A stretch of 42,599 nt of DNA from sequence record PQ571290; one strand, 5' to 3'. Source of the DNA: Escherichia phage EF2-1. Under the pieces are notes generated by a model, which saw only the letters and a list, made by a program, of their open reading frames with translations, was not told where the DNA came from and searched no databases. A program made the translations under genes and the position numbers. Below, piece after piece: positions 15,782 through 16,098 of the stretch; the first letter of the stretch is position 1; the number at the start of each line of letters is the position of its first letter.

Positions 15782-15831
15782 AGCGCCTGCGATTATTCCA
15801 GTTATTCCACCAAATTGTAAATATTGGAATA

Positions 15832-15874
15832 AACTATTCGAATAGTTGACTTTTCACTAAAAATGTGCTAAGCT
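15832..15874 (+). promoter_or_regulatory. promoter-like element with perfect 16-bp palindrome AACTATTCGAATAGTT
   Basis: palindrome 15832-15847 overlaps TTGACT (15846-15851); 17-nt spacer to TAAGCT (15869-15874). Confidence 0.35.
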
Positions 15875-15880
15875 CCACCT

Positions 15881-16067
15881 GAGCTTGTGAAGTATGAACA
15901 AGCGACCGCGGCGCGGGCAGGTAACGGAGCGGGACGTAAGTCCTGAGTGTAGTTACGCTGACGCGTTCGGAAGGGCCATACTCTATTGCTTGTGTAAAAA
16001 GTAACTGGTTTACTGAGATTACGCCGTTTCTATGTTTAAATGATAAGGACTAGCGCCCCGCTTTATG
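15881..16067 (+). ncRNA. candidate small transcript (non-coding RNA or 36-aa peptide mRNA)
   Basis: GC-rich ~190-nt segment between promoter-like element and hairpin GCCCCGC-tttatg-GCGGGGC-TTTA (16045-16067); only ORF is 36 codons (15894..16004) without clear RBS. Confidence 0.2.
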
Positions 16068-16098
16068 GCGGGGCTTTACTTATCGAGAAAGGAGAAAC

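Follow-up and report, generated by a model that had tools for sequence, protein, structure and literature searches.

A conserved non-coding island with promoter architecture and a structured leader RNA precedes the spanin, scaffold, and capsid genes of Guernseyvirinae phages

In phage lambda, late transcription starts at PR', goes through a 194-nt leader (the "6S" RNA) ending at the terminator tR', and is carried further by Q antitermination. In phage HK022, putL and putR encode antiterminator RNAs of about 70 nt, each with two stem-loops, which are sequence-related copies for two operons; terminators are read through without phage proteins, and mutations in the zinc-binding domain of beta' abolish the effect (PMC9378689). 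Here, we analyze a stretch of 42,599 nucleotides from Escherichia phage EF2-1 (record PQ571290; we call the whole stretch the window), and in particular the non-coding island lying at 15782-16098 between an Ig-like gene and the i-spanin gene. We propose that this island is the promoter-leader module of the late operon encoding spanins, scaffold, capsid, connector, and tail tube, i.e., a regulated promoter followed by a cis-acting leader RNA, and we give this interpretation about an even chance. The phage belongs to Kagunavirus (Guernseyvirinae): over 8 kb surrounding the island, it is ~90% identical to genomes of that genus, with Kagunavirus PDP21P8 as the top match. Members of the Guernseyvirinae, i.e., Kagunavirus, Jerseyvirus, and their relatives, count among the phages of E. 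coli and Salmonella most frequently isolated for therapy and biocontrol, and to our knowledge hardly anything has been described of how their genes are regulated. For Kagunavirus and Jerseyvirus, we found neither a transcript map nor a description of RNAs in the literature.

The identity of the island between phages, the conservation of its leader above that of the neighboring genes, and its covarying helices are more than chance would produce. Identity across the 342-bp island is 95-100% in 178 phage records. Across 33 Kagunavirus-type loci from IMG/VR, the leader has 97.7% identity to the window, against 81-92% for the spanin, scaffold, and capsid genes and 70-84% for third codon positions. 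Between Kagunavirus and Jerseyvirus the leaders are ~53% identical, no better than silent sites, and the architecture is nevertheless kept. Additional types of island, S1 and S2 (the latter in St162, which is Cornellvirus-like), are found before more divergent spanins, and the module shows mosaic exchange between lineages.

An earlier note on this DNA, made from the letters alone, had pointed to the arrangement TTGACT-17-TAAGCT, and the two hexamers are indeed present at 15846-15851 and 15869-15874. It had overlooked the TG at 15866-15867, which makes an extended -10 (TGcTAAGCT) and thereby compensates for a weak hexamer. TAAGCT matches TATAAT at only 3/6 positions, and therefore the site was not listed by a generic promoter scan. 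When the genome was scanned for TGnTAnnnT with a -35 match of at least 4/6, four sites were found, among which the island site alone reaches 5/6. The layout, given here for the window and then by version, is identical in the five versions of the island:

15846 to 15874, plus strand: sigma-70 promoter with -35 TTGACT (15846-15851), 17-nt spacer, and extended -10 TGc-TAAGCT (15866-15874), from sequence reading and scan
K1 (the window): -35 TTGACT, spacer 17, TGc TAAGCT
K2: -35 TTGACT, spacer 17, TGg TAAGCT
K2b: -35 TTGACT, spacer 17, TGc TAAGCT
Jerseyvirus: -35 TAGACT, spacer 17, TGt TACGCT
S1: -35 TGGACT, spacer 17, TGa TAACCT

The site has what defines a sigma-70 extended -10 promoter: a -35-like hexamer, a spacer of 16-18 bp, the TG, and a -10 with A2 and T6. 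The base after the TG is C, A, or G within Kagunavirus, and a freely varying n in TGn is the expected signature of this class. From the position of these elements, transcription would start near G15881.

The RNA that such a promoter would produce begins in a GC-rich segment (60-68% GC at 15875-15974, against 26-36% on both flanks), which the earlier note had also recognized. It comprises the following elements:

15883 to 15903, plus strand: 5'-proximal hairpin H1, GCUUGU/ACAAGC with a 9-nt loop (predicted fold)
15906 to 15970, plus strand: core three-helix hairpin of 65 nt (per-variant folding and covariation)
within 15906 to 15970, plus strand: core helix P1a, CCG/CGG, followed by a bulged C
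15910-15915/15962-15967, plus strand: core helix P1b, GGCGCG/CGCGUU with two G-U pairs, next to a small internal loop
15918-15925/15952-15960, plus strand: core helix P2, next to a purine-rich internal loop
15930-15935/15940-15945, plus strand: core helix P3, with a GUAA loop
15968 to 15988, plus strand: conserved tract CGGAAGGGCC-AUAC-UCUAUUG, directly 3' of the core hairpin
15989 to 16054, plus strand: AU-rich 3' half of the leader, 97.8% identity in the 33 Kagunavirus-type loci
16000 to 16014, plus strand: small hairpin AGUAA-CUGGU-UUACU
16016 to 16026, plus strand: motif GAUUACGCCGU, of which GAUU..GCCGU is common to Jerseyvirus, K2, and S types
16055 to 16083, plus strand: GC hairpin GCCCCGC-UUUAUG-GCGGGGC (16055-16074) followed by UUUACUUAU, dG -16.5, tail score 3.0

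The fold of the core is conserved in its architecture rather than in its letters. Twenty distinct cores (10 K1, 5 K2, 5 Jerseyvirus), and later more of them including K2b and K2c, have the same succession of P1a, bulge, P1b, P2, loop, and P3, with unrelated sequences in P2 and P3. The third pair of P1b is C-G, U-A, or A-U depending on the lineage, and the loop reads GUAA, CACA, CUCG, or AUUA. In an alignment of 40 sequences, the core, the GC hairpin, and a long-range helix (see below) have 94.5% of their cells paired, against 28-43% with slid partners; the covariation score is 0.198, against at most 0.045 for slid partners, and none of 500 shuffles reaches the observed score. Since MAFFT misregisters the apical helices between lineages, a single consensus is unreliable; hence, each distinct core was folded separately. 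The conserved tandem G-U pairs of P1b and P3 would be C-A on the other strand, which identifies the folded strand as the plus strand, transcribed from the promoter. Outside the core, H1 is identical in the K2 copies and is exchanged for a different hairpin at the same place in Jerseyvirus (ACGCU-UUC-AGCGU) and in S1. The tract, CGGAAGGGCC-N4-UCUAUUG, is nearly invariant in K1, K2, K2b, and Jerseyvirus, and partial in S1 (GCGCGGAAGGGUCG). Searches against Rfam 15 at the gathering threshold found no family in the whole window nor in the K2, Jerseyvirus, S1, S2, and Klebsiella-phage loci, a permissive search of the island gave a best E-value of 0.63, far short of the threshold, and ARAGORN found no transfer RNA or transfer-messenger RNA. 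The leader RNA thus belongs to no described family and is a new, unannotated one.

Other pairings and roles were considered for the leader. RNAalifold predicts a long-range helix between 15884-15893 and 16078-16087, just before the ribosome-binding site (RBS), with 99% of pairs formed and 2 compensatory Kagunavirus/Jerseyvirus pairs. We rejected it as a general feature, the covariation being between these two genera only and the duplex test failing for most sequences and for the S types; in the window's lineage the helix is tentative, and translational control of the spanin gene through it is no more than a possibility. A pairing of the 5' strand of P1 with a downstream ACGCCGU was discarded because, by eye, it is broken and uncompensated in two variants (L023 and L030). 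A CsrA sponge was discarded too: inspection of the alignment by eye showed a single GGA motif conserved between the Kagunavirus and Jerseyvirus leaders.

The GC hairpin that precedes the spanin RBS requires separate treatment. The earlier note had described it with its TTTA at 16045-16067; the sequence is right, and the position is ten bases to the right of that, at 16055-16074 for the hairpin and 16075-16078 for the TTTA. In the window it has the makings of an intrinsic terminator, with a stem of 8 pairs (7 of them GC) and T at 5/8 of the next bases, and by its tail score it is a match for the hairpins that follow the Ig-like, capsid, and tail-tube genes (2.5-3.7). Compensatory changes keep the stem (CCCCGC, CCCAGC, CCCTGC, CCCGGC). 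The terminator is not conserved in the orthologues, where the tail score is 1.86 in Jerseyvirus, 0.08 in S types, and 0.56 in K2, and the equivalent in S1 and S2 is a 13-bp covarying stem that lacks a U-run and leads directly into the RBS. In the lineage of the window, the hairpin is probably a leaky terminator (attenuator). Since the U-tail is not kept, the element common to the family is the leader, and a discrete RNA of ~195 nt would be at most a lineage-specific by-product or attenuation product. The small RNA that the earlier note had envisaged survives as a conserved structured RNA of the plus strand; that it ends at the hairpin is doubtful, because the U-tail is terminator-like in the window's lineage only.

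How would such a promoter be regulated? Upstream of it, and at two other places of the late region, lie repeated words that resemble operators (no strand assigned):

15792 to 15840: operator-like TTATTCC array of four words, two direct, one inverted, and one direct
15792 to 15800: word 1 of the array, ATTATTCCA
15801 to 15809: word 2 of the array, GTTATTCCA
15824 to 15832: word 3 of the array, inverted, TTGGAATAA
15835 to 15840: word 4 of the array, TATTCG
15826 to 15840: inverted repeat GGAATA-AAC-TATTC made of words 3 and 4, centered at about -48 from the predicted start
15832 to 15847: perfect 16-bp palindrome AACTATTCGAATAGTT, overlapping word 4 and the -35, specific to the window's lineage
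16609 to 16623: second inverted repeat, GGAATA-ATT-TATTC, in the o-spanin/scaffold gap, invariant between Kagunavirus and Jerseyvirus
19599 to 19613: third inverted repeat, with one mismatch (GGAATAACTTATGC), at the junction ahead of the head-tail adaptor gene

The array is kept in the Kagunavirus, Jerseyvirus, and S1-type islands. Allowing one mismatch, GGAATA-N3-TATTC has 7 hits in the genome for 0.5 expected, a number reached by none of 100 shuffles. All three sites (island, scaffold, and adaptor) are syntenic in Bas73 and in Jerseyvirus blauehaus, and St162 retains the scaffold site alone. Enriched and syntenic inverted repeats are the pattern of a dimeric DNA-binding protein, and these sites are a candidate operator for a late regulator. 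Scans with Pfam and PHROGs point to two candidate binders encoded in the window, an HTH_17 regulator (3700-3954, minus strand) and a NinH-like protein (9904-10164). The palindrome, which the earlier note had reported at 15832-15847 and which is present there, reads TATTCCAAAA(A/G)T in Jerseyvirus and S1-type islands; judged from these sequences, it is a local variant of word four. The regulator-binding site proposed by the earlier note thus takes another form, four TTATTCC words and a GGAATA-N3-TATTC repeat that recurs before the scaffold and adaptor genes, and the palindrome is not its conserved feature.

The surroundings of the second site are themselves of interest. The o-spanin/scaffold gap at 16578-16652 is almost invariant between Kagunavirus and Jerseyvirus and carries GGAATATTC, GGAATAG, and GGAATAATTTATTC words and then a hairpin. 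The GGAATATTC and GGAATAG words lie upstream of the repeat (16578-16594); the conserved hairpin, AAUCCGGG-UGG-CCCGGAUU (16634-16652), lies downstream, and its outer pairs are compensated (AAUCCGGG..CCCGGAUU versus ACACCGGG..CCCGGUGU). On the minus strand of the island, at 15792-15821, the TTATTCC words also compose a conserved leftward promoter-like sequence, TTTACA-18-TGgAATAAT. We rejected it as a real promoter: its transcription would meet only the bidirectional terminator at 15761-15778. Because it would enter that terminator at once, its words are read as binding sites instead.

The earlier note had also linked the palindrome to a genome-wide early operator, TATAATAG-N4-CTATTC. The two have words of 5-6 nt in common, and we found nothing further connecting them. 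The early element itself, (C)TTGCAC..TATAATAG-N4-CTATTC, comes close to being a palindrome in the region of its -10 and start, and it lacks a -35 at the usual spacing; by its sequence, it probably marks repressor-controlled early promoters, which lie as follows:

834-873, 4443-4490, 6034-6081, 14172-14225 (minus strand), 25695-25730 (minus strand), 37491-37530, 41045-41084: early promoter-operator elements

The genes around the island, whose names are projected from the annotation of phage Bas73, place it at the boundary between two long rightward operons, and the phage encodes no RNA polymerase gene:

~4500 to 15756, plus strand: rightward operon with small early genes, holin, endolysin, terminase, portal, head morphogenesis, and Ig-like genes (Bas73 projection)
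15763 to 15781, plus strand: intrinsic terminator GCCCC-GAAA-GGGGC + TTTTT, closing the terminase-portal-head morphogenesis-Ig-like operon; dG -10.0, 5 T in the first 8, tail score 3.71
16088 to 16101, plus strand: RBS AAAGGAG and ATG (16099) of i-spanin (sequence reading)
16099 to ~23070, plus strand: late operon with i-spanin (16099), o-spanin, scaffold, major capsid, decoration, connector, and tail-tube genes (Bas73 projection)

The upstream terminator, already noticed in the earlier note, is present at 15763-15781 and is a member of a terminator repeat family. The upstream operon being closed by this strong terminator 100 nt ahead of the promoter, the downstream genes need a new start. Downstream of the island promoter, plus-strand terminators lie at 16055, 18446, and 23079.

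Three side observations concern this setting. After the leader hairpin, 16078-16098 (ACTTATCGAGAAAGGAG) resembles the start of the early-type 5' untranslated region (UTR) at 4475-4500 (ACTTATCGAAACGAGACAGAGGAG), a likeness suggesting that an older early-type UTR may have acquired the RNA module in front of it. In Klebsiella phage VLCpiS11a, a more distant member of the Guernseyvirinae, the syntenic pre-spanin gap (L051:1712-1994) has six TTGCGAG/CTCGCAA words replacing the TTATTCC words, by its sequence a different operator vocabulary in the same place. Further away, at 26385-26406, a strong GC hairpin (GACGGGGCCGGAATGCCCCGTT) lies within the tail assembly chaperone region and may serve to stimulate frameshifting and not to terminate transcription.

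By a pattern search of IMG/VR, some Kagunavirus genomes were found to carry the module twice. In the phage collection, it occupies two places in 43/180 related records, and the full K2 form is found in 20:

L173:8465-8720; L294 (Shashou) ~7480-7800; L297 (fFiEco02) 500-800; L126, L132, L166, L304, L305: paralogous copies (K2, K2b, K2c)

In the K2 copy, the promoter, H1, and tract are the same, the core is a paralogue whose P2 and P3 differ, the terminal hairpin is its own, and there is no TTATTCC array. Its neighbors are a leftward helix-turn-helix regulator gene on one side and, on the other, the promoter from which the rightward early operon is transcribed under operator control. The window has no second copy, and a leftward open reading frame (ORF) of 116 codons occupies the corresponding position. 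The duplication shows that promoter and RNA form an autonomous unit, each copy being upstream of a long operon and co-oriented with it. In fact, the module is always immediately before an operon and faces it: the spanin genes for K1, Jerseyvirus, S1, and S2, and the early operon for K2.

The K2 core (L173:8528-8830) also has two stretches identical to the 5' UTR/RBS of early genes (CGAAACGAG and GGAGUGAG), and the 3' region of the K2 RNA (CUCACUCACUCAC ... GUUCGUUUCGUUUCG) is complementary to both. This complementarity suggests that the K2 copy is a self-masked antisense regulator of early translation. As a general feature, the mimicry of the early 5' UTR by the hairpin was rejected: it is real in K2 and was not found in the Jerseyvirus or K1 copies. 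A scan of bacterial genomes with the core pattern gave, among the matches listed, chance hits in GC-rich genomes apart from one contig of 6.2 kb (L231, JAEWLW010000073.1), assigned to a "Bacillota bacterium" metagenome-assembled genome. It carries a K2 module and an early promoter in Kagunavirus sequence, and is probably a phage sequence mis-binned into that assembly.

We can now outline how a promoter-leader module of the late operon would work. Host RNA polymerase with sigma-70 would start near 15881 at the strong extended -10 promoter, to which access would be set by a DNA-binding protein recognizing the TTATTCC/GGAATAA words, with the inverted repeat at about -48 and two words further upstream. 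The first ~200 nt would be untranslated and would form the 5' hairpin, the 65-nt three-helix hairpin, the conserved single-stranded tract, and the GC hairpin before the spanin RBS. This leader RNA would act in cis. In the window's lineage, the GC hairpin with its UUUACUU would be a leaky terminator, at which the polymerase either stops and frees an RNA of ~195 nt or continues, and the conserved hairpin and tract would decide the extent of transcription and possibly of spanin translation. Of this outline, the architecture of the promoter, the repeats, the conserved RNA fold, and the lack of coding are shown by the sequences, and the start site, the binding protein, the action in cis, and attenuation or antitermination as its mode are inferred. 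We rank action in cis first because of the constant position and orientation of the module, the terminator-less leaders of the S types, the lack of a plausible trans target among those searched (see below), and the strong terminator that cuts off the upstream operon and thereby makes the island promoter necessary for the late genes.

This interpretation should be taken with caution, since several observations weigh against it. The start and the end of the transcript are predictions. The predicted fold is barely more stable than shuffled sequences (z -1.95 for the whole leader and -1.3 for the core alone), and the helix between the 5' end and the RBS comes from one Kagunavirus/Jerseyvirus split and is not significant in the duplex/shuffle test outside the Kagunavirus type. 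The terminator-like tail is not conserved, and attenuation can thus not be a family-wide function. Recombinational spread of the module could explain part of the conservation within Kagunavirus. Neither a Q-like or N-like antiterminator nor another RNA-binding partner was found by Pfam and PHROGs in the 10 early ORFs scanned, and these scans gave the HTH_17 regulator and the NinH-like protein only. Finally, what directly follows the K2 copy is a separate promoter and not a gene, which would also fit an autonomous RNA gene.

The latter possibility is the first alternative to consider: the island could be a gene for a trans-acting small RNA of ~195 nt, acting on host or phage targets or sequestering a protein, with read-through into the spanin genes being incidental. 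The module has its own strong promoter and, in the window, a terminator-grade hairpin; K2 is a separate unit between two early operons in 43/180 relatives, with no RBS directly next to it; conservation at the level of sequence, as in seed regions, is seen in the single-stranded tract and in the AU-rich 3' half; and the 3' region of K2 is complementary to the 5' UTR/RBS of early genes (CUCACUC to GGAGUGAG, GUUUCG to CGAAAC). Yet the U-tail is short (3 U) and lost in the Jerseyvirus, S, and K2 copies, the S-type leaders are contiguous with the spanin RBS, and every copy is co-oriented with the operon downstream. The targets also fail to appear. Neither extended complementarity nor extended identity to the leader was found in 5,426 E. 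coli genomes, and scans of the phage for duplexes and exact complements gave chance-level matches only. The best phage target, a bipartite match of 11+8 nt at the start of a 27-aa ORF (9678), was rejected as being at chance level and unsupported in Jerseyvirus. With only 3 U after the stem and no target above chance, the RNA does not resemble Hfq-type small RNAs, and we regard a trans-acting RNA as unlikely. The ORF at 9678-9761 is worth a mention in its own right: it is an unannotated, hydrophobic frame of 27 codons (MSLEVAISLVGLSYFIGLLVGFLWGRY) with a good RBS, it overlaps the start of the next gene, and its start region is the best complement, though at chance level, to the 3' half of the leader.

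A slightly smaller chance is given to an ordinary 5' UTR, whose hairpins would stabilize the late mRNA (a 5' stem-loop against RNase E) and insulate it, the conservation coming from DNA-level sites and recombination. This would account for a hairpin that lies a few nt from the predicted 5' end in Kagunavirus, Jerseyvirus, and S1 with different sequences, for operator-like words (ATAG-N-CTATT) inside the leader DNA too, and for the mosaic distribution of the module between lineages. A hairpin of 65 nt whose bulge, internal loops, and flanking tract stay the same across K1, K2, K2b/c, and Jerseyvirus through compensatory changes is, however, more than a mere stabilizer requires, and duplication along with the promoter would not be expected of one either. 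The earlier note had held against its own idea that the island might be no more than the spanin gene's 5' UTR. This is half right, the island being such a UTR but not a simple one.

Two further alternatives have little left to recommend them. An element acting only as DNA (a replication origin, packaging site, or cruciform) could be suggested by AT-rich repeats adjoining a GC-rich palindromic segment, and is made very improbable by the conserved promoter, oriented to transcribe exactly the folded strand, and by the G-U wobbles maintained in P1b and P3, which the other strand would turn into C-A. The remaining one concerns the only ORF of at least 25 aa in the gap, where the earlier note had rightly seen no larger one:

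15894 to 16004, plus strand: spurious ORF of 36 codons, annotated as a hypothetical protein in some relatives

That its product is a small, basic, Cys-containing protein of 36 aa, as the earlier note had suggested, is hardly credible: the frame exists and is annotated in some relatives, but it is frameshifted or has lost its start in 7 Kagunavirus variants (L009, L013, L015, L017, L018, L025, L030), an 11-nt deletion takes away the ATG in every Jerseyvirus-type island, and substitutions track base-pairing and not codons. Comparison with relatives hence separates structural from coding conservation, the helices covarying and the 36-codon frame not being kept, and in view of these broken frames the hypothetical protein annotated in Shashou and Bas73 is best seen as spurious.

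The promoter-leader module marks the start of the late structural operon and supplies a candidate operator for a late regulator. It also defines a structured RNA conserved across hundreds of genomes; some of them have two copies, and several records wrongly list it as a hypothetical protein. Should this RNA govern elongation or termination, phages lacking a polymerase of their own would have in it a compact new means of timing late genes. If it does not, an annotation is corrected and a strong, portable promoter-leader part is gained.

Which of the known systems does the module resemble? The likeness to lambda PR'-tR' is in the general arrangement: a strong sigma-70 promoter (with -35 TTGACT), an untranslated leader of ~200 nt, a terminator-like hairpin, and then lysis followed by head genes, which in the island as in lambda would depend on read-through. 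The differences are that the scan of the 10 early ORFs revealed no Q-like protein, that the terminator is not conserved across the family, and that the leader fold is conserved and duplicated, which the lambda leader is not known to be. The counterpart of the lambda pause element (TAnnnT after the start) reads TGAGCT, without A2, in the window's lineage and TACGCT in Jerseyvirus, and there is none in the S types. An attenuating riboswitch would have the same order of promoter, structured domain, terminator-like hairpin, and RBS, with conserved nucleotides in loops and junctions and covarying stems, as in the island. However, the core is a single long hairpin with no evident ligand pocket or multi-helix junction and no Rfam match, and no alternative anti-terminator pairing is backed by covariation.

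Antitermination RNAs can be compared as well. In lambda nut and rrn sites (boxB and boxA, with Nus factors), a hairpin is followed by a conserved single-stranded tract and copies lie in the leaders of two operons, as here; the GUAA loop of the core recalls the GNRA loops often found in the known sites, and some Jerseyvirus tracts read GCUCUAUUG, resembling boxA GCUCUUUA. The invariant part of the island tract is UCUAUUG, not GCUCUUU, its hairpin has 65 nt versus 15, its loop sequence is not conserved, and no N-like protein was found among the 10 early ORFs scanned. Compared by description and not by sequence, HK022 put is ~70 nt long whereas H1 and the core span ~90 nt, and the window has a single copy. 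The likenesses to put are a cis RNA just downstream of a sigma-70 promoter and ahead of the terminators of a long operon, two adjacent stem-loops (H1 and the core) with no dedicated protein evident, and, in many relatives (43/180), two sequence-related copies, one per rightward operon. By this analogy, H1, the three-helix hairpin, and CGGAAGGGCC..UCUAUUG could be a processive antitermination or anti-pausing RNA of the put/nut kind in virulent siphoviruses, a proposal that we hold to be improbable. If it is true, the RNA would load on the polymerase of E. coli or Salmonella and carry it past the hairpin of the leader and past the terminators that follow the capsid and tail-tube genes, with the paralogous copies serving the early/middle and the late rightward operons. 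It would then be the first element of the put/nut kind outside lambdoid phages, and a new RNA fold reprogramming the host polymerase.

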